From a virus (Duplodnaviria; Caudoviricetes), in the IMG/VR virus record IMGVR_UViG_3300034170_000025, positions 1 through 58,179 of that record: a stretch of 58,179 bases of DNA, one strand, 5' to 3'. Positions within the stretch are counted from its first letter, which is position 1. Every line of letters begins with the position of its first letter. This document shows positions 11,311 to 52,381 of this stretch, piece by piece. A program made the position numbers and the translations under genes. Below the pieces are notes generated by a model. That model did not search any database and was not told the origin of the DNA. It was given only the letters and a program-made list of their open reading frames with translations.

Positions 11311-11500
11311 GCTTGTGAGCTTGAAGGACGTTGTAAGCCTGCCAGAGGCAGTTGAGTTCCTAGAAGGACTGCTGACCCAGCATGGAGACACTGAAGACGC
11401 CATGATGATCTTGCTGTTGAAGGTCAGCCTTACAAAAGCAATCCTTGAGAAAGCACTAGGGGCTGACCCAATCATCGTTACATTGGAGGATGTGGAATGA
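11303..11500 (+). CDS. Hypothetical protein
   Basis: AAGGAG SD before ATG 11303. Confidence 0.65.
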   Translation: MSELVSLKDVVSLPEAVEFLEGLLTQHGDTEDAMMILLLKVSLTKAILEKALGADPIIVTLEDVE

Positions 11501-12150
11501 GTGTTAGAGTAATTACAATCCAAGAGATGCTAGATTTACCAAAAGGCGCTCACGCTGTTTTGGTAAAGAACGTCGATGATCTGGATGGCGGTGGCCTAGA
11601 GGCAGGGGCTGAACTGACCAAGAAGGGTGAAGTGTTTGATGACAAGCAAAGTGTAGGGTTTTGGCACTCAAGCGGGCAACGGTGGGACTTCTTTGAAGAG
11701 GGGGAAGTTGGAGTTGTTGAACAAACAGCTACAAATTTTGATCTGTCTGTCTTCTCACCAGAAACTGGTGAGCCTGTCCTGGGCGTATTTCGTCCTGATC
11801 TGGATACGCGAAAAGTTGGAAAGGTTCGTGTTGAGTTGGTCGACGAAGGCTTCCCACTCGCATTGCGTGAAGTTGCTAAGGTCATGACTTGGGCACAAAC
11901 TGCGAAAGGTTATAAAGACCACGACTGGCAAAACCTACCAAATGCTGAAGTTGCTTTAGCTGCTGCGGCCAGCCGCCATCGCACAGACCATATCGAACAA
12001 AGGGTTGTAAAAGGTCTTGACACTGAGGAGTGTGTGGATGTAGAATCCTCACTTCACCACAAGGCCCATGAAGCTTTTGGTGTACTCGCTCAACTTGAGT
12101 TGATGTTACGTGGCAAGTTTGTTGACAAGCATACTGCATACGCGGTATAA
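11497..12150 (+). CDS. dATP/dGTP diphosphohydrolase domain (DUF5664-like) fused to an N-terminal beta domain
   Basis: K..GK.RVELV...AL.EVAKVMT...KGY..HDW...AAASRH...H.AH pattern in the C-terminal half. Confidence 0.7.
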   Translation: MSVRVITIQEMLDLPKGAHAVLVKNVDDLDGGGLEAGAELTKKGEVFDDKQSVGFWHSSGQRWDFFEEGEVGVVEQTATNFDLSVFSPETGEPVLGVFRPDLDTRKVGKVRVELVDEGFPLALREVAKVMTWAQTAKGYKDHDWQNLPNAEVALAAAASRHRTDHIEQRVVKGLDTEECVDVESSLHHKAHEAFGVLAQLELMLRGKFVDKHTAYAV

Positions 12151-17458: not shown

Positions 17459-17673
17459 TGGCTGAGTACAATATTCGAGTTACAAAATGGTGCAAACCCA
17501 AGGAAATTTTGTTTGAGTACAGCTCTCCAATCCCACCTTCTAAGGGTGACGTTATTTGGTATCGAGATAAAGCTTTCAGCGTTGGTTTGGTTAGCTATAT
17601 CCTCACGTCCTCCCAACAACAGGTTGGAGAGTACAACTATCTTGACTACATTGAAGTGCAGGTGATTCGATGA
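17458..17673 (+). CDS. Hypothetical protein
   Basis: TGATG coupling; GGAGG SD. Confidence 0.6.
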   Translation: MAEYNIRVTKWCKPKEILFEYSSPIPPSKGDVIWYRDKAFSVGLVSYILTSSQQQVGEYNYLDYIEVQVIR

Positions 17674-18290
17674 ACAAGCTCGTTATTATTGGCGGTGGAA
17701 CATTCAACCACATCTCTTGCCACCTTGCCCTGGCGGCTCCAGCGTTCGGTCAGACAGCCATAAATATGGCCCTCTGGGCAGAACAAATGGACACTGGCAT
17801 GGAGGTTGTTCTCAAGCTCACAAAGATGGCTGACCGTTCTAGTGAAATTTTTACAAATGACGACCTGCACAACTACGTCAGCACTTTGTTGGATGACCCG
17901 CTGGTGAAGATCATTGTAATGAACGCCGCTGTCTGTGATTTTAAGGCTGAGAACCCCTCTAATGAGACTCGGCTGTCTAGCAGTAGGGACTACACAGTCA
18001 CGCTAGAAGGAATCCGCACAAAGATCATGGGCATGATTCAATATCGCCGACCTGATATTGTTGTTTGTGGCTTTAAGACAACACATGGTGCCTCAGAGGC
18101 TGAACAAATACGAAAAGCTGTTGACAGCATGAACGCAAATAGCTTGCCATTGGTTCTGGCAAACGACCTAGAAACCCGAAGGAATATTTTGGTGTGTGAC
18201 TCAGGCCGTAACTTCTTCGATAATCGTGAATCCTTGCTTCGAAGGATGCTTGGACACGCTCTGTATAAAGCGAGACAGAAATGTGGTTGA
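17670..18290 (+). CDS. CoaB/DFP-like protein (phosphopantothenoylcysteine synthetase fold)
   Basis: IIGGGT, MNAAVCDF, VCGFKTT, VLANDL match CoaB motifs (TAGPT, AAVADF, VGFAAE/FK, IVAND). Confidence 0.75.
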   Translation: MNKLVIIGGGTFNHISCHLALAAPAFGQTAINMALWAEQMDTGMEVVLKLTKMADRSSEIFTNDDLHNYVSTLLDDPLVKIIVMNAAVCDFKAENPSNETRLSSSRDYTVTLEGIRTKIMGMIQYRRPDIVVCGFKTTHGASEAEQIRKAVDSMNANSLPLVLANDLETRRNILVCDSGRNFFDNRESLLRRMLGHALYKARQKCG

Positions 18291-18737: not shown

Positions 18738-18923
18738 ATGTCGCAATATGCTACTGATCGAATCGCTTCTATTCTGGATCGAATCCAAGAGCTTCACGCC
18801 GAGGCACGAGCTTTGTCGGACGAATACAATATCCCGTTTGACTTGGAGCTTGAAGGCGGACGTAACTACAATGTTACTGCCGAGTACGAACCTGGCTATA
18901 ACTGGCTGTCGTCTAACTGCTAA
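18738..18923 (+). CDS. Small protein, WxSSxC-tail family copy 1
   Basis: AAGGAG SD; ends NWLSSNC. Confidence 0.75.
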   Translation: MSQYATDRIASILDRIQELHAEARALSDEYNIPFDLELEGGRNYNVTAEYEPGYNWLSSNC

Positions 18924-18937
18924 TAAAGGAGAACACA

Positions 18938-19351
18938 TTGAGCATCAATAACCTAGAAGTATTTGAAGTGGCACGTATTCACGCTGGACTTGGTCACTTG
19001 CAAGACACCATCTATCGTGGTAACGTGGAAGCTGGCTGGTGGGAGAACATCTCCACAGGCGTTGCTCACCCTAAAGGTGACATCACTCTAATCTTGTCCA
19101 AACTGGCCCTGGTACACTCTGAGGTATCTGAGGCCGTTGAAGGCGTCCGTAAAGGCTTGATGGATGACCACTTGAAAGAGCGTCCAATGGCTGAGGTAGA
19201 ACTGGCTGACGCCATCATCCGCGCTATGGACCTTGCTGGTCATGAGGGTTGGGACTTGGCTGGGGCCATAGTTGAGAAGCTTTATTACAATGCTCAACGT
19301 GCTGACCACAAAATCGAGAATCGTTTAGCTGAAGGAGGTAAGAAAGCGTGA
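18938..19351 (+). CDS. MazG-like nucleotide pyrophosphohydrolase
   Basis: KLALVHSEVSEAVE..RK and EVELADAIIR (ExxE/ExxD) motifs. Confidence 0.85.
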   Translation: MSINNLEVFEVARIHAGLGHLQDTIYRGNVEAGWWENISTGVAHPKGDITLILSKLALVHSEVSEAVEGVRKGLMDDHLKERPMAEVELADAIIRAMDLAGHEGWDLAGAIVEKLYYNAQRADHKIENRLAEGGKKA

Positions 19352-19788
19352 AAACACTTCTATATATTGCAATCCAAGTTGCAAACGGAAGTCTTGATCT
19401 TGAAGGTGGCACCACTGTAGAAACTGAAAGCCAGTGCATCTACGTCAAGAATGGGCGTGAGTATAAGGATGAACACTATCTGGACAGCGAACGCCTTGGA
19501 CCAGACAAGTATGACTTTGAACTCGAATCGCAAGAGTTTACTGTAGAAGAAGTACAAGCCTATATCGATGGCCCATTTGCTGAAGAGCACGTAGCCTACG
19601 AAAAGGGACGCCGTGAAGCTGTCGCACGAGTAGCTGAACTGATCGAGCAAGTATCACCAGCTATGAGTGAGTTATTGACTCTGGCTAATGAGTTCAACAT
19701 TCCGGCTAATATCAAGGTGGGTAAGTACACCAATGACTTCCGCCTGATCGATGCTGTGGACTGGGATTCCAGTTCGATGTACTGCTAA
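19348..19788 (+). CDS. WxSSxC-tail family copy 2, with N-terminal extension
   Basis: GGAGG SD, GTGA overlap; ends DWDSSSMYC. Confidence 0.75.
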   Translation: MKTLLYIAIQVANGSLDLEGGTTVETESQCIYVKNGREYKDEHYLDSERLGPDKYDFELESQEFTVEEVQAYIDGPFAEEHVAYEKGRREAVARVAELIEQVSPAMSELLTLANEFNIPANIKVGKYTNDFRLIDAVDWDSSSMYC

Positions 19789-19813
19789 AATCCATAAACA
19801 AAGGAGAAACAAA

Positions 19814-20221
19814 ATGACTCGCACTGTTACTAATCAAGCACAATTTGAACTGGCCGCTGGTGTTACTCTGGTGTCCCAATTGATCGAGGGCACCAGCTAT
19901 GACGGCAAGCCTTTTAGCTACACAAGCCATGACCTGGAAGGTCTATCTGACAACGGGCTGGACGACCTTGCAAAATTGGCTATTGTCCTGCAAAACCTCC
20001 CAGAAGAGGGTGCCCTTGATATGAGTGCTGATGACCTTGAAGACTTCCTTAAGGACTGGGCACGTGACTTGGCTGAAGACGCAGAAGTACCCTTCACCTT
20101 CACCAGTGTAGGCGGCAAAACCAACACCTACACTCCCGCTTCGATGTGGGAAGCTTCTGGTAGCTGCTCTGAATGGGAACAGTCCGCACAAGAAGGTTAT
20201 GACTATGGGTGGAATATCTAA
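19814..20221 (+). CDS. WxSSxC-tail family copy 3
   Basis: AAGGAG SD before ATG 19814; contains MWEASGSC near the C-terminus. Confidence 0.7.
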   Translation: MTRTVTNQAQFELAAGVTLVSQLIEGTSYDGKPFSYTSHDLEGLSDNGLDDLAKLAIVLQNLPEEGALDMSADDLEDFLKDWARDLAEDAEVPFTFTSVGGKTNTYTPASMWEASGSCSEWEQSAQEGYDYGWNI

Positions 20222-20457
20222 TGTATACTGAAGACGCTGTAAAGCGCGACGCGCTCACCAAGATTGCTTTGCTGTTGTCGGAGGCTCAGTCCAAGGTATT
20301 AGAAGCTGAGATGCTTGCTGACGAACACGGCCTTGAGTTTGATCTTGACATTGGTGGATATGGCATGGGCGGCACCTACTACTCTGAGAAGTATGTAGAG
20401 GATTACGGCTCCCGCTACACCACTGCTGGTTGGAATGCTTCTTCGCAGAGCTGCTAA
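20221..20457 (+). CDS. WxSSxC-tail family copy 4
   Basis: TAATG coupling; ends GWNASSQSC. Confidence 0.75.
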   Translation: MYTEDAVKRDALTKIALLLSEAQSKVLEAEMLADEHGLEFDLDIGGYGMGGTYYSEKYVEDYGSRYTTAGWNASSQSC

Positions 20458-20465
20458 AAATAATT

Positions 20466-20505
20466 GGCCGTTGCCCTTGACAGGGTAGCGGCCTTTTTGT
20501 ATTAT
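20466..20505 (+). promoter_or_regulatory. Fused terminator and sigma70 promoter
   Basis: GGCCGTTGCCCT-TGAC-AGGGTAGCGGCC-TTTTT hairpin carries TTGACA (20477), 17 bp from TATTAT (20500). Confidence 0.75.
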
Positions 20506-20535
20506 GAGCCCACACAAACGAACGAGGATTTACAG

Positions 20536-21153
20536 ATGAACGACTTTAAATTTGGCGACCGTGTAGAGTTTATCTCTAAAAGTGGTGAGGGCGATCCCCG
20601 ATCTATTAAGGGTGAACACGGCGAGGTTAGACATGTATCTAATGACATGATCACTGTAGCAATGGACAGCGGCACCCTTATCACTGTTTTTGAGCACAGA
20701 CTCCGCAAACTCTCTTTTGAAGTTACCCCTATCGTAACTGGCATGCCAGGACGTTTGATCCAATTCAGTATTCCAATCCCAGGTGAATTTAAAGTAGGGG
20801 ATCGTGTCATGCTTGCCACAGCGGACCCAGAATATGGACGTGGCGAGGTTGATATGTTTGAGGTGGGCACTATTACTGACGTGGGTACAGGGGAGCGTGG
20901 CAGTGCTGATGTTGGGGATATCATCGTAGAGTTCCCAAGTGACGAAGATTGGGTAGGTGTGCCAGGAGACCTCAAACATGCTCCACAAAAAGTGCGTGAA
21001 GAGTTTCCTTTGCCAGAGGTGGCCTTACCAGATATTACCCTTGACGAAGCTGTAAAAGGCTGTCAGGATATTCGTCAACAGATGGCAGAGCTTGCTGGCA
21101 AAGCCAGAGTGTTTGAAGAAGTCATGCGTAAAGCTGGCGTAAAATTTATCTAA
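20536..21153 (+). CDS. Tandem SH3/KOW-like repeat protein with C-terminal coiled coil
   Basis: Two FKxGDRV repeats; tail paralogous to the next gene; GAGG SD before ATG 20536. Confidence 0.7.
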   Translation: MNDFKFGDRVEFISKSGEGDPRSIKGEHGEVRHVSNDMITVAMDSGTLITVFEHRLRKLSFEVTPIVTGMPGRLIQFSIPIPGEFKVGDRVMLATADPEYGRGEVDMFEVGTITDVGTGERGSADVGDIIVEFPSDEDWVGVPGDLKHAPQKVREEFPLPEVALPDITLDEAVKGCQDIRQQMAELAGKARVFEEVMRKAGVKFI

Positions 21154-21166
21154 AGGGGGATTTTAA

Positions 21167-21688
21167 ATGACTATCTATAAAGTTGGTGATACTGTTATCC
21201 GTGATAACGGTGAGTGGCGTGGCGTTAAGCCGGGTGATCTTCATGAGGTGGCTAGTGTGCATGGTGGTAATATCTGCTTAGTGGGTTTGGAGCAGTTCAC
21301 ATTTGACGGAGACAATTTTAGCCTTCATCATCGGAAAGCTGAACCCATCGAAGTGGCAGTTGGTGATACTGTCCGTATGATCAGTAAAACTCCAAAATAC
21401 GGCGCAGGTTGTATCAACGTAGGTGACGAAGGCATCGTGACCTCTCTGGACGGCGACGGCGGATACCATGTGAAATTTCCACGGCACAGCCACTGGCACT
21501 CGGGCAAGGATGACTGTGAGCTTGTAAACAAGATCATTGTTCCTGAAGTTTCCCTTGACGAGGCCGTTAGTCTGTGCAAAGATGCACGCACTGAGATTAA
21601 AGACCTTGAAGATAAGGTCAAAGCTTTGAAAGATTCAATCAAAGCTTACGAGCGAGTAGTTCGTAATGCTGGTCTCACATTCATTTAA
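21167..21688 (+). CDS. Tandem SH3/KOW-like repeat protein with C-terminal coiled coil
   Basis: Two VGDTV repeats; PEVSLDEAV...RNAGLTFI tail. Confidence 0.7.
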   Translation: MTIYKVGDTVIRDNGEWRGVKPGDLHEVASVHGGNICLVGLEQFTFDGDNFSLHHRKAEPIEVAVGDTVRMISKTPKYGAGCINVGDEGIVTSLDGDGGYHVKFPRHSHWHSGKDDCELVNKIIVPEVSLDEAVSLCKDARTEIKDLEDKVKALKDSIKAYERVVRNAGLTFI

Positions 21689-22078: not shown

Positions 22079-23119
22079 ATGTTGCTTATCGGCTCACGTG
22101 CTTTGGTAGCAAACAACCCTGAATTGGAAGGCACTCGTAAGTGTGTCGACTGGGACTATATCTGCACCTTGGATCAGTTTAAAGCTTGGCATAAGGCTAA
22201 CAAAGACAATCTGCAATTCGCTGTGCCAACTCAAGGTGGCAAGTACTACCATGCACGTGACAAAGACGGTATGAACTACGAGTTTGAGTTGGCTTGGCCG
22301 GGTACGTCTGCTGAGGATTTACTCAAGCACTACGGCCTACTTGACCATGTGTACAAGCCTGAGATTGGACCTGTGCCAGCAATCAATCCCGACCTGTTGA
22401 TCATCAAGCTGAGCCACCGCTACAAACGTAACTCGCCACACTTCCTCAAAACTATGAGTGATATCAAGTATCTTCGTGAAAAGGTTGGTGCTGAATTCTT
22501 TGAGAAGTTCATGCAGAATGGCATCAATGGCCCTATCATGGCAAAGCGTGAAGCTGAGTCCTACGACTACGCACACCCAAAGCTGAACGTTAGCTCGAAA
22601 GAGTTCTTCAATGGTGATGGCGTACAGTATGTGTACAACCATGACAGTATTCACTTGGCTGTAGCGATCACTCAGGAGTGGGACCAACCTGAAATCCAAG
22701 ATAACTACGACCATCACCCTGTGCCTGCATACACTTTCTATATGAAAGATGGCTCTGAGGTGATGACCTCGAAAGAGAAGTTCATGTCAGTGCATGAGTC
22801 TATACGTCTATACGGCGTCTATGAAGAATCCTGTGTGCTCGCTCTAGAGCGTTCCCAGATTCCCCACAACATGATGCCAACTATGGATGGCTCTGTGTGG
22901 TTCGATCGGTGCCGGAGTGGGCCATCACCACGATGGAGCTTTGAGATGGCTCTCATGAAGGTGTGTACATCTATTACGTCTGGTTGGTTTCGTGAGTACG
23001 CTTGGGAAAATTACCAGAAAGTGCTTGACCTGTACAACGAACTGGGTGAGAATGACTACATCGAACGGTTCACCAAGAACCAACATTTACTGACACCATA
23101 CAATGGAGAGAAATACTGA
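22079..23119 (+). CDS. Putative Pol-beta superfamily nucleotidyltransferase
   Basis: N-terminal hG[S] and DxD signature: LLIGSRAL...VDWDYI. Confidence 0.6.
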   Translation: MLLIGSRALVANNPELEGTRKCVDWDYICTLDQFKAWHKANKDNLQFAVPTQGGKYYHARDKDGMNYEFELAWPGTSAEDLLKHYGLLDHVYKPEIGPVPAINPDLLIIKLSHRYKRNSPHFLKTMSDIKYLREKVGAEFFEKFMQNGINGPIMAKREAESYDYAHPKLNVSSKEFFNGDGVQYVYNHDSIHLAVAITQEWDQPEIQDNYDHHPVPAYTFYMKDGSEVMTSKEKFMSVHESIRLYGVYEESCVLALERSQIPHNMMPTMDGSVWFDRCRSGPSPRWSFEMALMKVCTSITSGWFREYAWENYQKVLDLYNELGENDYIERFTKNQHLLTPYNGEKY

Positions 23120-23481
23120 TGCAAAAGTTCAAGAAAGGTGACACCGTGCAACGTACAAAAGGTCAATGGGAAACCGTAAAGGCTGGTGATATTTGTACAG
23201 TAGTGTCTGCTGATTGGAATGGTCTTACACTCTTGGGACACTCAGGCACCTACGATGACGAGTACTTCGTTAAGGTGGTTCTAGCTCCAAAGGAGCAGAA
23301 GAAGGTGACGATTGACGTTTGCCATCGTCTGGTGGCTTACGACTGTGAAATTGCTAATTTACAGGCTCGGCAGGATAATCTGAGAGAAGATTTCTCTCGA
23401 CAGCTTGCACAACTAGAGGGTACAATTGACACACTCACCACAGAAATGAACACCCTTAAATCTGAATACAACGTCGAGTAA
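23119..23481 (+). CDS. SH3-like plus coiled-coil protein
   Basis: FKKGDTVQRTKGQW..VKAGD is similar to the N-terminus of 21167. Confidence 0.7.
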   Translation: MQKFKKGDTVQRTKGQWETVKAGDICTVVSADWNGLTLLGHSGTYDDEYFVKVVLAPKEQKKVTIDVCHRLVAYDCEIANLQARQDNLREDFSRQLAQLEGTIDTLTTEMNTLKSEYNVE

Positions 23482-39641: not shown

Positions 39642-39896
39642 TCACCGAATGATCCTCCCGTTAAAGTTTGCATACCCTTCTTTATCGTCGTCATCGTAGA
39701 TGGTCCATGTAGACCTACACTCGCAGCACGCCACACTGATCCAGTAGCAGTCTGAAGTGGGGTCATAGTTACCAGTACTCCCGCCATACTTACCTGTCTT
39801 GTCAGTGTGAGGGCAGGTAGCTTGCAGTTCAGCCAGCTCTTGGGACAGTCGACTACGCATTGTGATGATGCGTGCTACACGTTCTTTGATAGTCAT
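39642..39896 (-). CDS. Hypothetical Zn-binding-like protein
   Basis: LQATCPH...CCEC; ATGA overlap. Confidence 0.65.
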   Translation of the reverse strand: MTIKERVARIITMRSRLSQELAELQATCPHTDKTGKYGGSTGNYDPTSDCYWISVACCECRSTWTIYDDDDKEGYANFNGRIIR

Positions 39897-40369
39897 TTCT
39901 GCCAATTGTAGCACCCCCCACGGTCTCCCCAGCAGCAACACTCCTTACCTTTGTCACAATACCCTGTAGAGCCAGTCAGGTGCAATAGGGCACCTTCGAT
40001 GGTTCCCATTTTGTCTACTGCTTCCTTCGCCTCTTTAAGGCCGCACCCTGCACGTTCCCGTACAGTCTTGATCATCATCACCTTACTAGCTACGAGTGGT
40101 GTTGGTGTGAAGTCGGATGCCCACTGCACTGCTGTTTCAGCAATAACTTTCTCATTTTCAAGGGCCAGGAGAAGGGATTCAAGAAGTTGGACGGCCTTCT
40201 CCTTGTTTGCATGCTGACTACGCTCACTGTCACAGGAGATACCAAGACCTGACGGAATATGGTGTGCAATGATCCCACCTGTGGTGAGGCCAACAGTCAT
40301 ACCGCCAGCCCCATGTCCAGTCTGTGGCAGGTAGGATGTGATTCGGATATCAAACAGACTAATCGCCAT
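39893..40369 (-). CDS. Class I release factor-like domain (GGM in place of GGQ) fused to an L7/L12 CTD-like motif
   Basis: GAGGMTVGLT..GIIAHHIPSGLGISCDSERSQHANKEKA and KVMMIKTVRERAGCGLKEAKEAVD. Confidence 0.75.
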   Translation of the reverse strand: MAISLFDIRITSYLPQTGHGAGGMTVGLTTGGIIAHHIPSGLGISCDSERSQHANKEKAVQLLESLLLALENEKVIAETAVQWASDFTPTPLVASKVMMIKTVRERAGCGLKEAKEAVDKMGTIEGALLHLTGSTGYCDKGKECCCWGDRGGCYNWQK

Positions 40370-40793
40370 AGTGGAGTATTTCCTCAAAAGTGTTTTCAAA
40401 GTTTTCTAGAACAGCCTCGTTGAACCAACGGCTTGCTCCTGTGGGGCAGAGTGTACCACATTTAGCTAATGCGTCAATGAATTTCTTATATTCTCTCTGC
40501 TCTTTGAGGTTCTTTTCGTGCTCGGTTTGCACGCCATACCAACCATACCCGGAGGTTTCAATCTGATGACCCGCATCGTTCACCAGTACAAGCACTTGCT
40601 CGGTGAATCCAGGGTTCCGTTCAGAGCGGTAGACATAACTGCTCTTGAAGTACCAGTTTTGGTTTCCAGCAATACGTTGGAGTTCATAAACCAAGTGCTG
40701 AGATACCTCAAGTGTTTCCTCTAGCTTCTTGTAGAACGTGAAGTCGCTAGAACCGTATCCGTTCTCCATACGATAGCATTTGCGTTTGTCCAT
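40359..40793 (-). CDS. Hypothetical protein
   Basis: GGAGG SD; TAATG coupling. Confidence 0.65.
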   Translation of the reverse strand: MDKRKCYRMENGYGSSDFTFYKKLEETLEVSQHLVYELQRIAGNQNWYFKSSYVYRSERNPGFTEQVLVLVNDAGHQIETSGYGWYGVQTEHEKNLKEQREYKKFIDALAKCGTLCPTGASRWFNEAVLENFENTFEEILHYGD

Positions 40794-43354: not shown

Positions 43355-44035
43355 TCAAGCTTCTTTGCTGAGTTTCTTAGCAGTAAATGCAGCCGCTACA
43401 ACGATACCAGCACCAACAGCTTTAGCGATCCAGTGGTTCACTTCGCCGATGTATTCAATGAAGTGTGCGTCAGATACGATCATTTCAGCACCAACAACAC
43501 CCAACATACCAGCACCAATCCAGATAATCACTGGGAATTTATCCATCAGACCAGACAAGTACTTAGCACCGTAGACAATGATTGGGATGCTCAATACGAT
43601 ACCAGCGATTGCGTACAGTGTAGAGTGAGCACCAGTGCTAGAAGCAGCACCTGCCACAGCCATTACGTTATCCAGCGAGAGCATGAAGTCAGCTACAATG
43701 ATGGTCCATACAGCGCCCCAAATTGTAGATTTCTGTTCAACTTCTGGGTCTTCTTCATGACCTGTCAACAGCGAGTAACCAATCCAGACCAAGTAAATAC
43801 CAGCGAAAATCTTCAGGAATGGGATACCCAGCAAGAAGGTTGCGAATACCAGCAGGACAGCTCGGAGTGCGATGGCGCCAGCAGTACCAAGCAGGATTGC
43901 TTTACCACGAACACTTACAGCCAGAGAAGCACATGCCAGAGCGATCACGATTGCGTTGTCTAGACCCAGAAGCAGGTCAATCATCGTGATCTTAAAGATC
44001 GCAGCCCAGTCGAGCATTGCGAAGAATTCCATCAT
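43355..44035 (-). CDS. terC: TerC-family integral membrane protein
   Basis: DLLLGLDNAIVIALA, IIVADFMLSLDNVMAVAG. Confidence 0.92.
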   Translation of the reverse strand: MMEFFAMLDWAAIFKITMIDLLLGLDNAIVIALACASLAVSVRGKAILLGTAGAIALRAVLLVFATFLLGIPFLKIFAGIYLVWIGYSLLTGHEEDPEVEQKSTIWGAVWTIIVADFMLSLDNVMAVAGAASSTGAHSTLYAIAGIVLSIPIIVYGAKYLSGLMDKFPVIIWIGAGMLGVVGAEMIVSDAHFIEYIGEVNHWIAKAVGAGIVVAAAFTAKKLSKEA

Positions 44036-44070
44036 TTTTGTTTCCCCTTTCAGTTTGTTTGTGTGGGGCC

Positions 44071-44099
44071 ATCTTATCTAATGGCCCCCATATTGTCAA
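44071..44099 (-). promoter_or_regulatory. sigma70 promoter
   Basis: TTGACA-17-TAAGAT; GGGGCCAT..ATGGCCCC inverted repeat around -10. Confidence 0.75.
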
Positions 44100-44103
44100 C
44101 TAT

Positions 44104-44754
44104 TTATTTGGTTGCGAACGCTTTAAATTCTTCGTTCAGCAACAGCTCATAGAACTTGTTCTGATCGATAGCCTTCGGGTCCGTGATGTACAGCACTTCA
44201 ACAGTGTCATACTTCGCAGCGATAGCGTCCAAATAACGTTTATCGCAACCATTACCGATAGCAACGATCTGTACAAAGGTGTTCTCCAGCGAGTCTAGCT
44301 GAGCTTCAAACTCACGCTTATCGTTGTTGGCACCATCGGTGATCAGTGCCAGATAGGTTGGGGTTACAGGCTTAGCTGCACCGAAACCGAACAGACCGCG
44401 TTTTGTTGCCTGACCTTTCAGACCTGCAATAGCGTCTGCGAAGTTTGTCCCGCCGCCTGCACGAATACCATGCTTACGGATGTAAGTGTGTGCATCATCT
44501 ACAGTCATATCTGGTGTACGGTCAAACGAAGTGTTGAAGAAACCAATCTCCATCTTGCCGTCATCATCAAATTTCATAGCTGCTGCCAGGAACAGGTCAA
44601 GAGTGTCTTGTACCCAACCACATGCGAACTCGTCGTCCATCGAGCCAGATTTATCTACCGCCAGCTTTACTGCCATGATGATTGGTGTGAAAATCTGAGC
44701 CTTTTCAAGATTCAGTTCCAGAGCTTTGGTCAAGTCTAACATTGGCATACCCAT
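44104..44754 (-). CDS. vWA domain protein (TerF C-terminal-like)
   Basis: DKSGSM, FDDDG, GGGTNFA, ITDG. Confidence 0.85.
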   Translation of the reverse strand: MGMPMLDLTKALELNLEKAQIFTPIIMAVKLAVDKSGSMDDEFACGWVQDTLDLFLAAAMKFDDDGKMEIGFFNTSFDRTPDMTVDDAHTYIRKHGIRAGGGTNFADAIAGLKGQATKRGLFGFGAAKPVTPTYLALITDGANNDKREFEAQLDSLENTFVQIVAIGNGCDKRYLDAIAAKYDTVEVLYITDPKAIDQNKFYELLLNEEFKAFATK

Positions 44755-44777
44755 ATATCCTCCTTTGGTTTGATGTG

Positions 44778-45905
44778 TTAAATACTACCGGATTGTTTTA
44801 ATGCTGTCAACAGACTTTTTTGTCCATTTGCCAGCTCTTTTGCATCTGTAGTGCAACGTGCAACGTCATCTCGCTCGATCTGACGTACCTCAGTTACAGT
44901 CTCCAGTACACGCTGACGCAATGTGCTCAGAGTCTCAGTAGAGATGGTCGCAGTACCCAATGCCTTAGCACTGTTGATGGCAGCGATCTTAGCACCTTCA
45001 CTACCTTTGAGCAAGCTCTTTTCAGTGAGGTCACGCACGTTACTCACGAGCTGGATGCTGCTGTTCACGTCCAGGGTCTGTTTGAACAAAGCAAACTCCA
45101 TCATGATTACTGGAATATTCATCATGATGCCTTTCAGCGTAGACACTGCTGTACGGCTCGACTCCTGCTGCTGGCGAATCCGTGGACTGTTGATTTCAGT
45201 CATAGTTTTCAGACGCAGCAGGGTGTCCAGCTTCAACTTCAGACGGTGAATCTTAGACTCAGCATCACGCACCATCTGAGCTTCCATTGCAGCGTTAGGA
45301 CCACTCAGGTCAATCTCAGGCCACGACGCAACTTGGGATTCACACATGTCGATCAGGCTCTGTACTTCACGCATCTCAGAGGTGATCTTACCATAGTGGT
45401 TGTAGTTCTCGCCATACAAACCTTCCATGTCAGTGATCCACTGTTGTTGAGTGGTGATGTTCACGGAGATTTTATTCTCCAGGTCACCAAACACTTGCTG
45501 TGCAGAAGATAGACGCATGGTTAGCGTATTCTTCAGGTCACTGAATTTGTTCTGGAACCAGCCTACCACACCACCCTTCTGAAGGGAAGCAGGATCAAGC
45601 TTATCAGCTTCAGAGGCAATAACAGTTAGGATTGCACCTAGCTCTTCAAACTTGCCAACAGACATTTTGGTGATAATCTTCTGAGTGGTGTTACCCAACT
45701 CACGAGAGACGTTTTCACCAATACGGTCAATGTCTTCGTCAGACACGACCAGATTACGTGATGGCAGGCCAGCTTCACGAATTGTGGCAGGGAACGCCGA
45801 ACTCCTGCCAACAGGGGTTTCGGCGATCACAACTGAAACCTCACCAGCCTTCAAGCCACCAGTTGGCGCTGGCTGAAGTCCCGCTCTAGCAAATACTTTA
45901 CTCAT
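44778..45905 (-). CDS. telA: TelA/XpaC-type toxic anion resistance protein
   Basis: Long coiled-coil protein, LDP..L.K.G..GWF motif, ter-cluster context; AAGGAG SD before ATG 45905. Confidence 0.7.
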   Translation of the reverse strand: MSKVFARAGLQPAPTGGLKAGEVSVVIAETPVGRSSAFPATIREAGLPSRNLVVSDEDIDRIGENVSRELGNTTQKIITKMSVGKFEELGAILTVIASEADKLDPASLQKGGVVGWFQNKFSDLKNTLTMRLSSAQQVFGDLENKISVNITTQQQWITDMEGLYGENYNHYGKITSEMREVQSLIDMCESQVASWPEIDLSGPNAAMEAQMVRDAESKIHRLKLKLDTLLRLKTMTEINSPRIRQQQESSRTAVSTLKGIMMNIPVIMMEFALFKQTLDVNSSIQLVSNVRDLTEKSLLKGSEGAKIAAINSAKALGTATISTETLSTLRQRVLETVTEVRQIERDDVARCTTDAKELANGQKSLLTALKQSGSI

Positions 45906-45912
45906 AGTGGGT

Positions 45913-46299
45913 TTACTCTCCTTTCTCAATTCGGCCAATTTCTGTAGGGGTGTCACTGTGTTTACCACTCCATTTTAGTGTGCGGCCATTCAGCCCGTGG
46001 AAGAGAATATACCCGTCTTTCGAGAACAGGTCAACACCTTTCGAGACATCTTCCCCGTAACGTGTTGGAACTTCAAACCCCTCCAAGTCGTAAAAAGACC
46101 AGCGCTCGCCGCAGCACTCACACCAATAACGAGCATCATCTTTGTCGATCATATCTTGCATAATAGCAAACGCTTGATCAACGTTCATAGCTTGTACGAA
46201 TACAACATCTGCAACAAAATCACCACGCTCGTAGTAACCACCAGAGTTATTCTGGTCAAACTCGTACCACAAAGCACCTTCAATTTTTACTGGAAGCAT
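45913..46299 (-). CDS. Conserved phage protein (QNNSGG/CECCGERW family)
   Basis: WYEFDQNNSGG...CECCGERW; GGAG SD; promoter TTGACA-17-TAGAAT at 46373-46345. Confidence 0.7.
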   Translation of the reverse strand: MLPVKIEGALWYEFDQNNSGGYYERGDFVADVVFVQAMNVDQAFAIMQDMIDKDDARYWCECCGERWSFYDLEGFEVPTRYGEDVSKGVDLFSKDGYILFHGLNGRTLKWSGKHSDTPTEIGRIEKGE

Positions 46300-48081: not shown

Positions 48082-48606
48082 TCAGCATAAATCTTCCTCC
48101 CTCAGTACATACACCGTTACTGTAAAACGTTCGTCGAAGACACTATCAACAATCTCAGCAATTGTATCCCAGTCACCACCGCCAAGGCCAGCCCCAATCT
48201 TAGGGAAACCTACTTTAAAGTAGTTAGGCTGATACTGTGTAGCAGTTAGGATGTCATTCCGCATGTGGGTCAAAGCCTCTTCAAGCTTACCATAATCAGT
48301 GTACCCCTTTGCGTCATAGCCGTAGTTGTATTGACCATAGAGGTTGTAGATCAACCCACAACTTCCGTCATCGCGGTCGTGAACACCAACAGAGCAGTCA
48401 CCAAACTTACCAACGTCGCCTTTTTCAGTCTCCTGATCAGCGTACCAAGCATCAGGAAACTCCATCTTGATGGCTTTAGCCACACCAGAGTTCATGGTAC
48501 AGAAGCAGTTTGCCTGATGCCCAATAACACTCACCTCGCCAGATTTGAGGGCTTCAGTTAAGTCACCAACTTTGTACTTAATCTTATTGTCATTGTACTT
48601 AGTCAT
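48082..48606 (-). CDS. Macrodomain (ADP-ribose-binding/hydrolase) protein
   Basis: GDL, HQANCFCTMNSGVAKAI, NLYGQ, PKIGAGLGGGDW. Confidence 0.9.
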   Translation of the reverse strand: MTKYNDNKIKYKVGDLTEALKSGEVSVIGHQANCFCTMNSGVAKAIKMEFPDAWYADQETEKGDVGKFGDCSVGVHDRDDGSCGLIYNLYGQYNYGYDAKGYTDYGKLEEALTHMRNDILTATQYQPNYFKVGFPKIGAGLGGGDWDTIAEIVDSVFDERFTVTVYVLREEDLC

Positions 48607-48712
48607 ATTTAGCCATCTCCCGCTCGTGCCACTTTTCATGCACTTCATCTGCAAATGCAACGATGACACAGAAAATGAATAAACCAAAAAGCAGTTCCAT
48701 AAAACCTCCTTA

Positions 48713-48739
48713 GAAAAGAAGCCCCTCCGAAGAGGGGCG
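48713..48739 (-). terminator. Intrinsic terminator
   Basis: GCCCCTC-TTCG-GAGGGGC-TTCTTTT on the minus strand. Confidence 0.8.
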
Positions 48740-48744
48740 ATACA

Positions 48745-50496
48745 TCATGCCGAACGGGTACGAATTTCATCCAGTGTTACACGGCTCAGGAAGACACCAT
48801 CACGGTAGAACACTTTTAGGGCGTTACCCTCTTCTTCTTCCCACTCTTTGGTCACATTATCGTCAAGCTCAAAACCAGCCTCAGAGTGCATAACGTACAG
48901 ACGACCTTTAGCACTTTTCTTCTTGCTGTCAGTCTTCGGGTCTTTGAAGATTGCGACTTCTTCGCCGTTGATCACGGAGTTAGTAGCCTTCACAGCAAAG
49001 CCGAAGGTGTCACGGGTGTTGCACTGGTAGGTGTAACTACCAACCCCGAAGACAACGTTTGCAGCAGCAAAGCCCTTCTTGGACAGACGATCCAGAATCT
49101 CCAGAGCACGTTTGGTGGTAATACTGTCACCATAAATCAGGCCAATGTGCGAGTCAAGCAGTTTGTGACCAGTTTCGGTGAGAGTCCCACCAAAAGTGTC
49201 ATACAGAACCTCGATTGCGCCTTTTACTTCTGCTTCAGTGATTTCAACCTGAACATAGTCGTAAAAATCACAACCACGCCAGTCATCGTAACCCTCATAG
49301 CTGATTTCGTAGTACTTACCGTCAACACGAACGTAGTCATAGCCAAGGTCATGATATTCACCACGATCACTGTTATTCTCAAGTGCTTCCTGAGTGGTAT
49401 CAACCACACTGAAACCACAGATCACTTTAACAGGATCACCAGAGTCTGGACGCACCACCAGTTTACCCGGTTGTGGGCCAAATCCTTCACGTGCCATGAT
49501 CACGTCTTTCAGGTATGGATACCCACGAGTCAGCATACCCCAGAAGTCGTATGTATCCGATACGTTAGAGACGATGCCGTTAGGTACAATCTGAGTGATC
49601 AGGACATACACAAACATCACTTCTGCGATCAGACGCATGTCTTCTTGCTTGCCCAACATCTTGAAGCAGATCAACTCTTGCTCGGTGCTCACGAATTGGT
49701 ACTTGCTGGCTTCCAACTCATTTTGGATGCTGATAATGTTGTTCGAAGTTACGGCGTGCTCGGTAGCAGGAACGCTGATACCAATCAAACCTGTCGCATC
49801 GTAGTAACGCTTGGCGTAGGTGATAGCTGGCAGAGTGTCAGTGCCAATGAACTGAGTCAAGTGGCCGATACCGCTACGTGCAGCGTCTTCGATACCGCTC
49901 ATACCACGCATCGAGAAGTCGTGGCACATTACCGACACAGTGAAGGCATCGTAGCAGCCAGTAAGTTTGGTGTAGTGCTCACAAATCTTACGATACTCAC
50001 GTGCGATTGTAGCGTTGGTAGCTGTCTTCCAAGTAGACGCAGACAGTGGAGTCTCTTGGTAGTTCACCAGCCAGAAAAACTCAGGCAGGGTGTTGGTGAT
50101 GGTCATGACAGGGATACCCATCGGAACCAAACTACCTTCAGGCAGCGAACGGAACTCCAGCGGCAGGTAGCCAAGTTCATGCAAATCACACATCTGTTGA
50201 ACAGTTGGCAACTCTCGCCCGAGATAACCTTGCAGGAATTCTGCATACTCAGCAATAACTTCAATCTGTGATTTCGAGAAGAAAGTGCGAACCCAGTTTT
50301 CGTTCAGCTCTTGTACAGCAGCCTGACCACCAACCCAAACCAACTTGCCATCGTAGAACGCTGTGCAGTTGCGGCGATGAATTTTGTCAGTACGTGGTGT
50401 CAGGTTGCTGCCCACCTGAGTGGTGCCTTTACGGTACATCTGACCGTGGCCCAGCTTGTAACCATCAGTAGCCAAGTGCATCAGGAAATTACTCAT
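48745..50496 (-). CDS. Nicotinamide phosphoribosyltransferase-like enzyme (Namat/Nampt)
   Basis: TDGYKLGH, HDFSMRG, PATEH, VSDTYD, RPDSGDP, IYGDSIT, RDTFGFAVKAT, KSAKG. Confidence 0.92.
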   Translation of the reverse strand: MSNFLMHLATDGYKLGHGQMYRKGTTQVGSNLTPRTDKIHRRNCTAFYDGKLVWVGGQAAVQELNENWVRTFFSKSQIEVIAEYAEFLQGYLGRELPTVQQMCDLHELGYLPLEFRSLPEGSLVPMGIPVMTITNTLPEFFWLVNYQETPLSASTWKTATNATIAREYRKICEHYTKLTGCYDAFTVSVMCHDFSMRGMSGIEDAARSGIGHLTQFIGTDTLPAITYAKRYYDATGLIGISVPATEHAVTSNNIISIQNELEASKYQFVSTEQELICFKMLGKQEDMRLIAEVMFVYVLITQIVPNGIVSNVSDTYDFWGMLTRGYPYLKDVIMAREGFGPQPGKLVVRPDSGDPVKVICGFSVVDTTQEALENNSDRGEYHDLGYDYVRVDGKYYEISYEGYDDWRGCDFYDYVQVEITEAEVKGAIEVLYDTFGGTLTETGHKLLDSHIGLIYGDSITTKRALEILDRLSKKGFAAANVVFGVGSYTYQCNTRDTFGFAVKATNSVINGEEVAIFKDPKTDSKKKSAKGRLYVMHSEAGFELDDNVTKEWEEEEGNALKVFYRDGVFLSRVTLDEIRTRSA

Positions 50497-50532
50497 TGTG
50501 TCTCTCCTTTGTGTCTCTGTTTGTGTGGTGCC

Positions 50533-50560
50533 ATCTTACCAGATTGGCCCTCCATGTCAA
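50533..50560 (-). promoter_or_regulatory. sigma70 promoter
   Basis: TTGACA-16-TAAGAT followed by GGCACCACACAAAC. Confidence 0.75.
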
Positions 50561-50707
50561 CGTTTATTTTGCATCGCAGTAGACCACATCATCTGATCAA
50601 TGCGATCATTGTAATTGCGGTTAGAGATGTAAAATGCAATCCAAGCCACTACCCAAGGAAAGAACAGGATGGATAGGATCAAGTGACCAATGTGATTTGT
50701 TCTTCGT

Positions 50708-51523
50708 TTAGTTAACATTGTTGCCTCCGCAGTAAAATTGTGGGTTCATCATTAGCGGTGCATCTGGTGGCAAGAAGCACTGTGGCTGTTGCATCACTAC
50801 AGGTGTTGCTACCGCTGGTTGACGTTGTTGCATCAAGAGCTGGTTTTGCATGTCGAGCTTATCCTCGATACGCTGGTCAGTCTTAGCTTGTTCAATCTGT
50901 GCAGCAGTAGCCCCCGAGCTTGCACCGTAGTGGTGTGGAGTACTCAAGGCATTGTACAGCATCATACCGCCGACCGCACCCGCAGCACCATATAAGAAAC
51001 TACTTCCACCAGAGTTATACCCACCATAACCGTAACCACCGCCATAACCCCGATTGTATCCATTATAGCCTCCGTAAGAATTGCCGTAGTAGTTGCGTTG
51101 AATCACTGTGGTGCGTGGGCTGCTGTATACCGAACGATTGGAGCTGTACCCAACAGGGCTGATAACCTTACGAACTGGAGCCTTGTAGGCTGGTGCGCTG
51201 CTCACACTCTTCTTACCAAACCAACCCGTATTAACTGTCGATGTAGGACGGCTAGACGGTACGCTTGCACTTGGACGGCTTACCGTCTGGGTTGGTGCAG
51301 GCTTGGAGAAACCAAGCGCCTTTAGGCCAGGGTTGCTGCTTGTTGAACGGCTCGGAGCGGACACCGCTGGAGCCGAGTACTGCTTTGGGGCAGAATAGCT
51401 GCTCCGAGACGAAGAGCTGTAGCTCGACCGAGAGGACGAAGAAACTCGACTTGCTGCCCCAGCCTCTACAACAATCATACCCATCATCAGGAAGCCCATA
51501 ACACCAGCGATAATCTTTTTCAT
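50708..51523 (-). CDS. Exported low-complexity Ser/Gly/Tyr-rich protein
   Basis: Signal peptide, Ser/Pro-rich region, GY repeats, a hydrophobic segment, Cys pair at the end. Confidence 0.75.
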   Translation of the reverse strand: MKKIIAGVMGFLMMGMIVVEAGAASRVSSSSRSSYSSSSRSSYSAPKQYSAPAVSAPSRSTSSNPGLKALGFSKPAPTQTVSRPSASVPSSRPTSTVNTGWFGKKSVSSAPAYKAPVRKVISPVGYSSNRSVYSSPRTTVIQRNYYGNSYGGYNGYNRGYGGGYGYGGYNSGGSSFLYGAAGAVGGMMLYNALSTPHHYGASSGATAAQIEQAKTDQRIEDKLDMQNQLLMQQRQPAVATPVVMQQPQCFLPPDAPLMMNPQFYCGGNNVN

Positions 51524-51532
51524 GTGTAATCC

Positions 51533-52381
51533 TCAGTATTTCAGAACAGTAAGTTTTGGGTTAAGCCCTTGCGGTAACGAGTCAGTAGTGTACACGTGAT
51601 CAAACACATCTGTCAACACCTCGACACCCTTAGAGAAGATACCGTGTGTGACGGCCAACTCAAGGTACTCAACATAGCTGATGCACTTCACCAATTCTAC
51701 GAATGTACGCCCGCCATCACAAATATCATCGAGTACCAGATACTTACCGTCTGGGTCGACATCACCAATTGGCGCCATCCCTGTAATCTTACCTGTCGAA
51801 AGCTCACGATGCTTCTGGAAGTACACAACCGCCTTGGCCCCAACAGCTTTTGCGAACTCTTCGGTCTTCTTAGCAGCACCAGCATCAGGGGCAATGATAG
51901 TCCACTCGCTCCAGTCGTCTTTGATGCCTTTGAACGCAGTGATCTGGTCAACTACGAAGCATCGGTCCAATGCAGCTACGAGAACGGGGCTGTGAGGGTC
52001 TACAACAGTCACTGTGGCGTAGTTCTGCGAGTTAATGAGTGTAGCCATTAACTTGGCACTCAAAGCCTCCCCAGGGTTGCATACGCGGTCCTGGCGTGCA
52101 TACGGAAAGTATGGAATGTTCAGGTCAAGGCGTGCATTTGGGTAGACACGACGCAAAGCGTCTGTCGCAAGAAACATTGCCATCAACTGGTCGCTGTTTT
52201 GAATCTTAGCAACAAGATCAATGGTATCAACGTAGTTGGATTCAGTGTCCAGCCAAGAAAGAGAGCCAGTGTTGATATTCACGCCAACCTCGCCACCAGG
52301 GAAGGTCATTGTGCTGATAGAAATCCGTTGGGTGCGGAAGCCATTTACTGTGTAGTAAAGATTTTCGTTAAAATCGGTCAT
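51533..52381 (-). CDS. Ribose-phosphate pyrophosphokinase-like enzyme (Adps/Prs)
   Basis: FPGGE, PYFPYARQDR, DPHS, APDAGA, DDICDGGRTF, THGIFSKG. Confidence 0.92.
   Translation of the reverse strand: MTDFNENLYYTVNGFRTQRISISTMTFPGGEVGVNINTGSLSWLDTESNYVDTIDLVAKIQNSDQLMAMFLATDALRRVYPNARLDLNIPYFPYARQDRVCNPGEALSAKLMATLINSQNYATVTVVDPHSPVLVAALDRCFVVDQITAFKGIKDDWSEWTIIAPDAGAAKKTEEFAKAVGAKAVVYFQKHRELSTGKITGMAPIGDVDPDGKYLVLDDICDGGRTFVELVKCISYVEYLELAVTHGIFSKGVEVLTDVFDHVYTTDSLPQGLNPKLTVLKY

Follow-up and report, generated by a model that had tools for sequence, protein, structure and literature searches.

A small gene placed upstream of the gene for an enzyme is the typical order of antitoxin-toxin pairs. 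Among the described nucleotidyltransferases (NTases), enzymes of the MenT family can place phosphate on a Ser/Thr hydroxyl, and MenT auto-phosphorylates an active-site Ser/Thr, according to the accessible text of one report (PMC11375011); NTases of the MNT type AMPylate a partner protein, as MntA does with HepT (accessible text of PMC11586414 and PMC13000451). Here we analyze a whole viral contig of 58 kb (IMG/VR record IMGVR_UViG_3300034170_000025, 58,179 nucleotides; hereafter the window), which belongs to an Otagovirus-like Pseudomonas myophage with VCM, PPSC2 and the phiPsa374 group as its nearest named relatives. It codes for four small acidic proteins, P1 to P4, which carry a characteristic Trp-Ser-Cys tail, and for a predicted NTase downstream of them. 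The tail family and the NTase constitute an undescribed and widespread two-gene phage module, neither partner of which has an assigned function or a solved relative detectable by sequence. No description of the tail family, the tail motif or the pairing with the NTase was found in full texts of the literature, a search that did not cover supplements, and the accessible text of PMC13716836 contains no mention of nucleotidyltransferase, NTase, small acidic or paralog.

The Cys-tailed proteins and their shared core

All four small proteins are encoded on the + strand. P1 (18738..18923; 61 residues) ends in NWLSSNC before the stop codon, which is the short tail form W-x-S-S-x-C, has an isoelectric point (pI) of 4.25 and a net charge of -7, and is recovered by phrog_899 (E 6.2e-6) and by a hidden Markov model (HMM) of the family (E 2.5e-12). 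P2 (19348..19788; 146 residues; phrog_23943, E 7e-71; family HMM, E 1.2e-13) has an N-terminal extension of about 85 residues, which is followed by the family core and then by the terminal DWDSSSMYC. P4 (20221..20457; 78 residues counted from its ATG; phrog_899, E 4.4e-18; family HMM, E <= 2.5e-12) is the archetypal member, in which a long helix, a β-hairpin bearing the sequence YGMGG and an acidic linker lead up to GWNASSQSC with its free C-terminal carboxylate. P3 (19814..20221; 135 residues from the ATG that is used by the VCM orthologue; phrog_17937, E 7.2e-59) is a divergent paralogue with the family core at residues 48-110 and an internal motif, MWEASGSC, with the Cys at W+6. The motif is followed by an extension of 17 residues up to the stop, SEWEQSAQEGYDYGWNI, with the conserved pattern EW..SA..GYDYGWNI, and the P3 orthologues likewise keep an internal motif with the W-x-x-S-G-G-C-E-W extension. 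The four proteins are all strongly acidic (pI 4.05-4.35, net charge -7 to -19), and P1 and P4 contain no Trp or Cys outside the tail, which has one of each. The window contains 1001 stop-to-stop open reading frames (ORFs) of at least 30 residues; 16 of those with at least 50 residues end in Cys, and an ending of the form W-x(1-2)-SS-x(1-3)-C is found among the 1001 ORFs only in P1, P2 and P4.

P1 to P4 are true paralogues, and their common core reflects homology rather than chance. An HMM built from 66 P4 orthologues and run against the ORFs of the window recovers P1 (E 5.8e-5) and P2 (E 0.011). Single-linkage clustering by BLASTP, with the last nine residues of each protein removed, brought together 161 of the 196 members of the family, P1, P2 and P4 among them. 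Profile-profile comparison using hhalign, with a profile made from 36 diverse family members, matched the P2 orthologues with a probability of 98.3% (E 1.9e-14) and the P3 orthologues with a probability of 94.1% (E 1.3e-7); the latter match covers the core only and is thus independent of the tail. P3 itself is a singleton in the BLASTP linkage and falls short of E 0.01 with the family HMM, with which four of its orthologues reach about 0.008. In all four proteins the core consists of a long helix that ends in the pattern A-[DE]-E-x-[GN]-h-x-F and is followed by a β-hairpin. PHROGs divides this one homologous family among phrog_899, phrog_23943 and phrog_17937, and records neither the tail nor the pairing with the NTase.

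These results bear out what the first-pass annotation of this DNA had observed and, in part, its interpretation. The four ORFs are where it had placed them, with P3 carrying the motif internally and the other three ending in it; the helix-strand core that it had seen in all four is recovered by the HMM, by the tail-less BLASTP comparison (P1, P2 and P4) and by hhalign (P2 and P3); and the proposed selection on core and tail agrees with the retention of GWNxSSxxC in 66/66 orthologues of P4. Its statement that the proteins have no assigned function also holds, as the relevant PHROGs entries are labeled 'unknown function' and searches of Pfam, NCBIfam and PDB sequences with the small proteins gave no match. 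A further sequence search against structures returned only compositional helix matches to designed proteins, and the ESM Atlas gave only unnamed clusters with scores of 0.75-0.76. The emphasis which that annotation had laid on a Ser-Ser-Cys unit has to be corrected, since what does not vary is W-x-x-S together with a terminal Cys at variable spacing.

The breadth of the family became apparent in a search with the profile of 36 members, which at E <= 1e-3 retrieved 1545 clusters, defined at 50% identity; 489 of them reach E <= 1e-10. Among the best 150 of these 1545 clusters, 145 have a representative whose last residues are precisely G-W-x-[SAP]-S-S-x-x-C, and five have one with 1-4 extra residues. 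The median net charge of the best 150 representatives is -8. A set of 192 distinct tails falls into two main registers, with the Trp at position -8 in 141 and at -6 in 43, and their common denominator is W-x-x-S followed by a Cys at W+5 to W+7. A Ser occupies W+3 in all 192 of these regex-selected tails, a count that is partly forced by the regular expression, and also in 21/21 variant tails that were found by HMM without it. Relatives of P4 were identified by tblastn in 60 phage records, including those of jumbo phages of Ralstonia, Erwinia and Xanthomonas, of Myxococcus phage Mx1, and of T4-like phages of Cronobacter, Enterobacter and Acinetobacter, and the family seems to be confined to phages, or nearly so. 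Longer forms, in which the tail domain would be part of a fusion protein of 171-2000 residues, were not found, although this is weak evidence. In a jumbo phage of 306 kb, one tail protein (locus L114, 5926-6222) has three W-x-S-x-x-C units in succession (..WVSSDC..WSDSGC..WSASSQSC), and about 30 kb separate its gene from the NTase gene of the phage.

Linkage of the tail genes with a predicted nucleotidyltransferase

The partner gene, which was not part of the first-pass annotation, lies at 22079..23119 (+), 1.6 kb downstream of P4 on the same strand, and codes for a protein of 346 residues with the Pfam domains DUF7277 (residues 1-84, E 1.8e-22) and DUF7275 (residues 106-329, E 3e-64); it also matches phrog_2141 (E 8.8e-113). 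We recovered 2461 homologues at E <= 1e-5, and the gene is present in 699 of 50,697 phage records, where it is annotated either as 'hypothetical' or as a 'putative nucleotidyltransferase'. Many of these records belong to T4-like, rV5/phAPEC8-like, Otagovirus and jumbo phages, and the hosts include Escherichia, Acinetobacter, Aeromonas, Pseudomonas, Klebsiella and Vibrio.

In each of five distant, annotated phage loci, tandem genes for tail proteins are closely followed by a conserved gene for a protein of about 305-336 residues. The linkage was then assessed from both sides, using 80 IMG/VR loci selected by the NTase and 58 loci selected by the small protein through its YGMGG motif (a narrower alignment); the two sets share many contigs and are therefore not fully independent. 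On the NTase side, ORFs with the strict tail occur in 77 of the 80 loci (216 such ORFs among 15579, with no stray matches) and lie upstream on the NTase strand in all but four loci. The family HMM finds a member in 78/80 loci, with one to six copies in each and a single copy in 16/80. Where a tail gene lies upstream on the NTase strand (74 loci), the gap between the two genes has a median of 258 nt and a maximum of 1241 nt. One of the two loci without a member is cut at the start of its contig (L071). The other (L064) has an NTase that lacks the N-terminal GS/DxD catalytic head and has no tail gene, and the second copy in the same genome is intact. On the small-protein side, the NTase is found downstream on the same strand in 55/58 loci; two of the three misses are contig ends, and in the third genome the NTase lies 30 kb away beside another tail gene. 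The headless and intact copies mentioned above (L064, 5201-6202, and L145, 1438-2590) reside in a single viral record of 157 kb, and the intact copy has directly upstream of it a tail gene whose product ends in ..DDSWEASDC.

A pattern scan of a collection of 185,579 prokaryote genomes yielded three contigs of metagenome-assembled genomes, and 3/3 carry both genes; the patterns were narrow, so that this is a lower bound. When the NTases were grouped into 25 lineages (at 60% identity), the tail family emerged as the only co-conserved gene (in 18 lineages if only members of at least 70 residues are counted), and no other gene was co-conserved in more than five of the 25. The linkage spans unrelated types of phages with genomes of 90 kb to 400 kb. 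Tail family and NTase thus form a two-gene phage module in which linkage is near-obligate.

Predicted structures and conserved residues of the two partners

The AlphaFold2 model of the NTase has a mean predicted local distance difference test (pLDDT) score of 84.3 and a predicted template modeling score of 0.78. Foldseek matches it to MenT1 (E 8.6e-4), and VIA-align aligns 152 residues, lying within residues 1-312 of the model, with MenT1 (Z 10.8, root mean square deviation 4.0), followed by MenT3/TglT (9.7), ANT(2'') (9.5), LnuA (8.0), MenT4 (7.8) and JHP933 (7.5). VIA-align Z scores under about 8 are common, and the top four matches of the model, which stand above the rest, are all NTases. 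The residues of the Pol-β-type catalytic set, G5, S6, D24, D26 and E68, are each present in 93 or more out of 100 diverse homologues, and as these catalytic residues are retained, the NTase looks active. The same level of conservation (at least 93%) extends to many Lys, Arg, His and Glu residues and to C296; K110, R114, K124 and D128 are also conserved, and the invariant His, Asp, Lys, Arg and Cys residues of the large DUF7275 domain include H188, D189, H192, K294 and C296. The protein shows no match to Pfam AbiEii/DUF1814 at E <= 0.1, DUF7277 and DUF7275 being its only Pfam matches, and no sequence match to a PDB chain. The modeled fold is thus of the MenT type, without demonstrable membership of the MenT family. 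We dropped an identification as a HEPN protein, for which R258-x4-H263 had offered a resemblance to the Rx4H motif: R258 is invariant, H263 falls under the 93% threshold, and there is no HEPN chain among the 50 structural matches listed for the model. The NTase family of Bacillus phage Bcp1 (accessible text of bioRxiv 10.1101/2025.06.06.658234) differs in the GS-to-DxD spacing and in its motif, and by inspection is not the same family.

The model of P4 (pLDDT 89.4) consists of a helix of 33 residues (4-36), a β-hairpin (39-43 and 50-54) with the YGMGG sequence, a short helix (56-62), a third strand formed by G-W-N (70-72), and a terminal turn, S-S-Q-S (74-77), of lower confidence. It predicts for the family an α+β fold in which a long helix at the N-terminus packs on a small sheet of three strands, the last of which contains the Trp of the tail, and the chain closes with a short S-S-x-x-Cys turn. 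A fold search of the PDB with the P4 model gave no match at E <= 0.001, the best VIA score being a Z of 3.9 that covers the helix only, and a search of BFVD retrieved only uncharacterized phage proteins, including RB69ORF139c.

Possible functions of the module

The tail proteins are probably dedicated partners of the NTase, and its substrates. The genetic linkage provides indirect support for the notion that they are substrates or carriers with a modified tail. Given this linkage, the conservation of the Trp, the Ser and the terminal Cys, and the lack of a third component, we infer that the tail meets the active site of the NTase. The best explanation at present, to which we give a tentative probability of about 0.35, is that the tail proteins work together with the NTase and that the Ser of the tail is the acceptor of its reaction. 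The acidic body of the small protein would dock at the place where MenT-type enzymes hold the 3' end of RNA. The tail would then enter the active site, where it may be anchored by the Trp and the terminal Cys, with the carboxylate and the thiol close to the catalytic metals, and the NTase would move a nucleotidyl or phosphoryl group from a nucleoside triphosphate to the Ser at W+3, with the Ser that follows it as a possible second acceptor. The diverged paralogues of a phage, one to six in number, could be differently shaped carriers of one modification that are directed at different host targets, with a role in takeover or counter-defense during early or middle infection. An extended version of this proposal, which we consider rather unlikely, is that of a phage protein-nucleotidylylation system, in which the tail Ser of the diversified acidic carriers would be the acceptor, or a primer for a short oligonucleotide, and the resulting conjugates would be decoys or inhibitors of host defenses that sense nucleotides, target tRNA or bind nucleic acids.

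Several points weigh against the proposal that the tail Ser is the acceptor. The relatives of the NTase in the MenT group act on tRNA and not on proteins. Some members of the tail family have 1-4 residues beyond the Cys or, like P3, an internal motif, which makes a strict need for a free carboxylate doubtful. The tail of P4 appears partly packed in the model (strand 70-72 and helix 74-77, pLDDT about 71), so that it may have a structural role and not extend freely as a substrate. With a pI of 5.8 (family median 6.15), the NTase is not a basic protein overall and hence offers no simple charge complementarity to the acidic tail proteins. Within the window, three genes and a terminator-like hairpin stand between array and NTase, and the distance of 1.6 kb exceeds the gaps of all 74 upstream-linked loci.

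The main rival explanation, possible if doubtful, is that the tail proteins are antitoxin-like regulators. Here the NTase would be the effector, acting for instance on the 3' ends of host or phage tRNA, and the tail proteins would restrain or tune it, either as a plug that mimics a 3' end or by means of their N-terminal helix. The closest folds to the NTase are indeed those of the MenT1, MenT3 and MenT4 toxins, the small protein gene lies upstream of the enzyme gene as expected for an antitoxin, and the headless NTase copy also lacks a tail gene. In the accessible text of PMC11375011, residues 1-32 of MenA1 (helix α1) suffice to control MenT1, and the P4 model opens with a helix of 33 residues. 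Nevertheless, up to six diverged paralogues for a single NTase gene would be odd for an antitoxin, and the absolute conservation of the Ser, the Trp and the terminal Cys suggests chemistry over mere binding. In addition, the small proteins showed no sequence similarity to MenA or AbiEi in the Pfam, NCBIfam and PDB searches, and the fold searches gave no match for the P4 model. It is the presence of many divergent paralogues around a chemically suggestive invariant tail that narrowly favors a role as substrate over one as regulator.

Two further alternatives are weaker rivals than either a substrate or a regulator role. The tail proteins could be independent acidic decoys or mimics of nucleic acids that bind host proteins on their own, the NTase being a co-regulated neighbor in an accessory block. 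This would fit their marked acidity, their presence among the segments that have diverged from a 90-95% identical relative (see below), and a region that is rich in accessory genes such as those for the Macro protein and for the NAPRTase and Prs-like proteins. We regard it as improbable, as co-regulation does not explain a linkage that holds across 25 NTase lineages and unrelated phages with no other conserved neighbor. A Ser shortly before a C-terminal Cys also recalls the tails that form lanthionine and S-aminovinyl-cysteine (AviCys), and the position of the tail Ser 2-4 residues ahead of the Cys raises the prospect of a maturation like that of ribosomally synthesized and post-translationally modified peptides. 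In this scenario the Ser would be activated by nucleotidylylation or phosphorylation and eliminated to dehydroalanine, to which the Cys would add in a thioether ring, or which would trap a host nucleophile; the invariant H188, D189, H192, K294 and C296 of DUF7275 could then serve the second reaction. We judge such a route quite improbable: neither LanB-, LanM-, LanKC- or LanC-like proteins nor an HFCD decarboxylase occur among the 50 Pfam-scanned proteins of the window (105 candidate ORFs) or among the co-conserved neighbors, the Ser-to-Cys spacing varies, and the presumed substrates are folded proteins of 60-150 residues and not leader-core peptides. Very improbable, in our view, is a metal- or disulfide-bridged assembly in which several paralogues would be tied together through their terminal Cys residues to form a hetero-oligomeric scaffold. 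The single Cys at the very end of P1 and P4, the several paralogues per phage and the long unpartnered N-terminal helix of the P4 model, which suggests oligomerization, are compatible with it, but it leaves the invariant Ser and the NTase linkage unexplained, the cytoplasm is reducing, and 16/80 loci have a single copy.

With its invariant Trp, Ser and terminal Cys in the tail and its intact NTase, the module presents a directly testable hypothesis. If the proposed role of the tail Ser as acceptor is true, it would represent a new phage protein modification, and if the regulatory alternative is true, a new way in which an enzyme that modifies tRNA is controlled during infection; in either case, therapeutic-phage genomes would gain annotations for thousands of genes now labeled 'hypothetical'. 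The nucleotidylylation version, if true, would define a new class of post-translationally armed effectors in hundreds of large virulent phages.

Genomic setting of the module in the window

The tail genes sit in the early/middle region of the genome, among genes for replication, nucleotide metabolism and accessory functions. The genes of this region include those for a primase-helicase, PolA, ThyX, ribonucleotide reductase (RNR), a CoaB-like protein, a glutaredoxin and MazG, and farther along those for a protein with an RF-1 domain, TerC/TerF/TelA, a Macro protein, NAPRTase with a Prs-like protein, and a ligase. The gene for the MazG-like pyrophosphatase (18938-19351) sits between P1 and P2. 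Directly 3' of P4, a consensus scan detected a terminator-like hairpin with a 12-bp stem and a T tract (20466..20493, +), which overlaps a promoter-like site at 20477-20505 from the same kind of scan. Three paralogues of phrog_4317 (20464-21153, 21167-21688 and 23119-23481, all +) flank the NTase region. The first two form an insertion between P4 and the NTase; their products carry SH3/Tudor-like repeats in the N-terminal part and have in common a C-terminal helix ending in ..AG[VL][KT]FI. In the third the match to phrog_4317 is limited to the N-terminal part.

Upstream of the array, the CoaB-like protein (17670-18290, +; phrog_35624, of unknown function) contains the C-terminal DFP domain (PF04127, E 1.5e-11). 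It is a stand-alone version without the CoaC flavoprotein domain and has weak matches to models of phosphopantothenate-cysteine ligase. We considered it as a Cys-directed partner of the tail proteins and rejected it for lack of co-conservation with that family; its domain is that of the ligase and not of the decarboxylase. At 11497-12147 (+), upstream of the ThyX and RNR genes, lies a gene whose product has the N-terminal domain of a dATP/dGTP diphosphohydrolase (PF18909, E 2.2e-19). The distal part of the window carries, on the - strand, a protein of 168 residues (39896-40399) with an RF-1 domain of the peptidyl-tRNA hydrolase/ArfB-like kind, which over a short stretch also matches the C-terminal domain of L7/L12, and a cluster of the tellurite-resistance type (43358-45968), with genes for a TerC membrane protein, a vWA-TerF-like protein and a TelA-like protein in a row. 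On the same strand are encoded a Macro-domain protein (48085-48687), a NAPRTase-family protein of 583 residues (48748-50496) and a ribose-phosphate-pyrophosphokinase-like protein (51536-52381), a block (48085-52381) that we take to resemble the gene pairs for NAD+ reconstitution of phages.

A close relative, present as a contig with 90-95% identical DNA (run X2), has in place of P2 an unalignable sequence of similar length. Its divergent segments relative to the window lie at 19287-19806, 20013-20145 and 20246-20351, with the parts belonging to P3 and P4 differing at equal length, so that tail genes are among the segments that diverged; other segments have diverged too, including part of the NTase gene (22647-22811). 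In a run labeled as a metatranscriptome, parts of P1/MazG, P3/P4 and the NTase are covered at a depth of 2-5 by 13 short, identical contigs. These were not used as evidence, since the presence of contigs in an RNA library is no proof of transcription.

Comparison with known systems

By score, the proteins of the window are members of existing database bins, namely phrog_899, phrog_23943 and phrog_17937 for the tail proteins and phrog_2141 and DUF7277 plus DUF7275 for the NTase, all of them without a function. With lanthipeptide and AviCys-type precursors, of which epidermin is an example, the tail proteins share a Ser a few residues ahead of a C-terminal Cys; unlike these precursors they have no leader-core architecture, the presumed carriers are folded, and no Lan enzyme or Cys decarboxylase is linked to them. 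ANT(2'')-Ia and LnuA resemble the NTase in fold with comparable scores (Z 9.5 and 8.0), and adenylylate a hydroxyl of a substrate that is not a nucleic acid; they are, in contrast, small-molecule resistance enzymes of about 160-180 residues that lack DUF7275 and linked small proteins.

The nearest structural likeness is to the MenT/AbiEii (DUF1814) group. The NTase model is closest to MenT1, MenT3 and MenT4 (Z 10.8, 9.7 and 7.8), the protein combines a Pol-β-type GS...DxD head with a helical C-terminal part, and a small gene lies upstream; in the accessible text of PMC11375011 MenA1 acts through its N-terminal helix. At the level of the fold, the alignment to MenT1/MenT3 extends to residue 312 of the NTase model, a span that may or may not include counterparts of the C-terminal motifs III and IV of MenT (as defined in the accessible text of PMC7450476). 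The NTase differs in being about 130 residues larger, in showing no sequence match to AbiEii at E <= 0.1, in residing on virulent phages instead of bacterial chromosomes, and in having as its partners one to six acidic Cys-tailed paralogues whose predicted fold is unlike anything solved. In the type VII HepT-MntA (HEPN-MNT) system the acceptor is a HEPN RNase toxin, whereas small acidic proteins are proposed here, and the Rx4H-like string R258-H263 of the phage NTase is not kept at the His. In that system a minimal NTase covalently NMPylates a dedicated partner on a side-chain hydroxyl (accessible text of PMC11586414 and PMC13000451), and by analogy HepT-MntA may be regarded as the nearest precedent for the chemistry that we propose for the tail.

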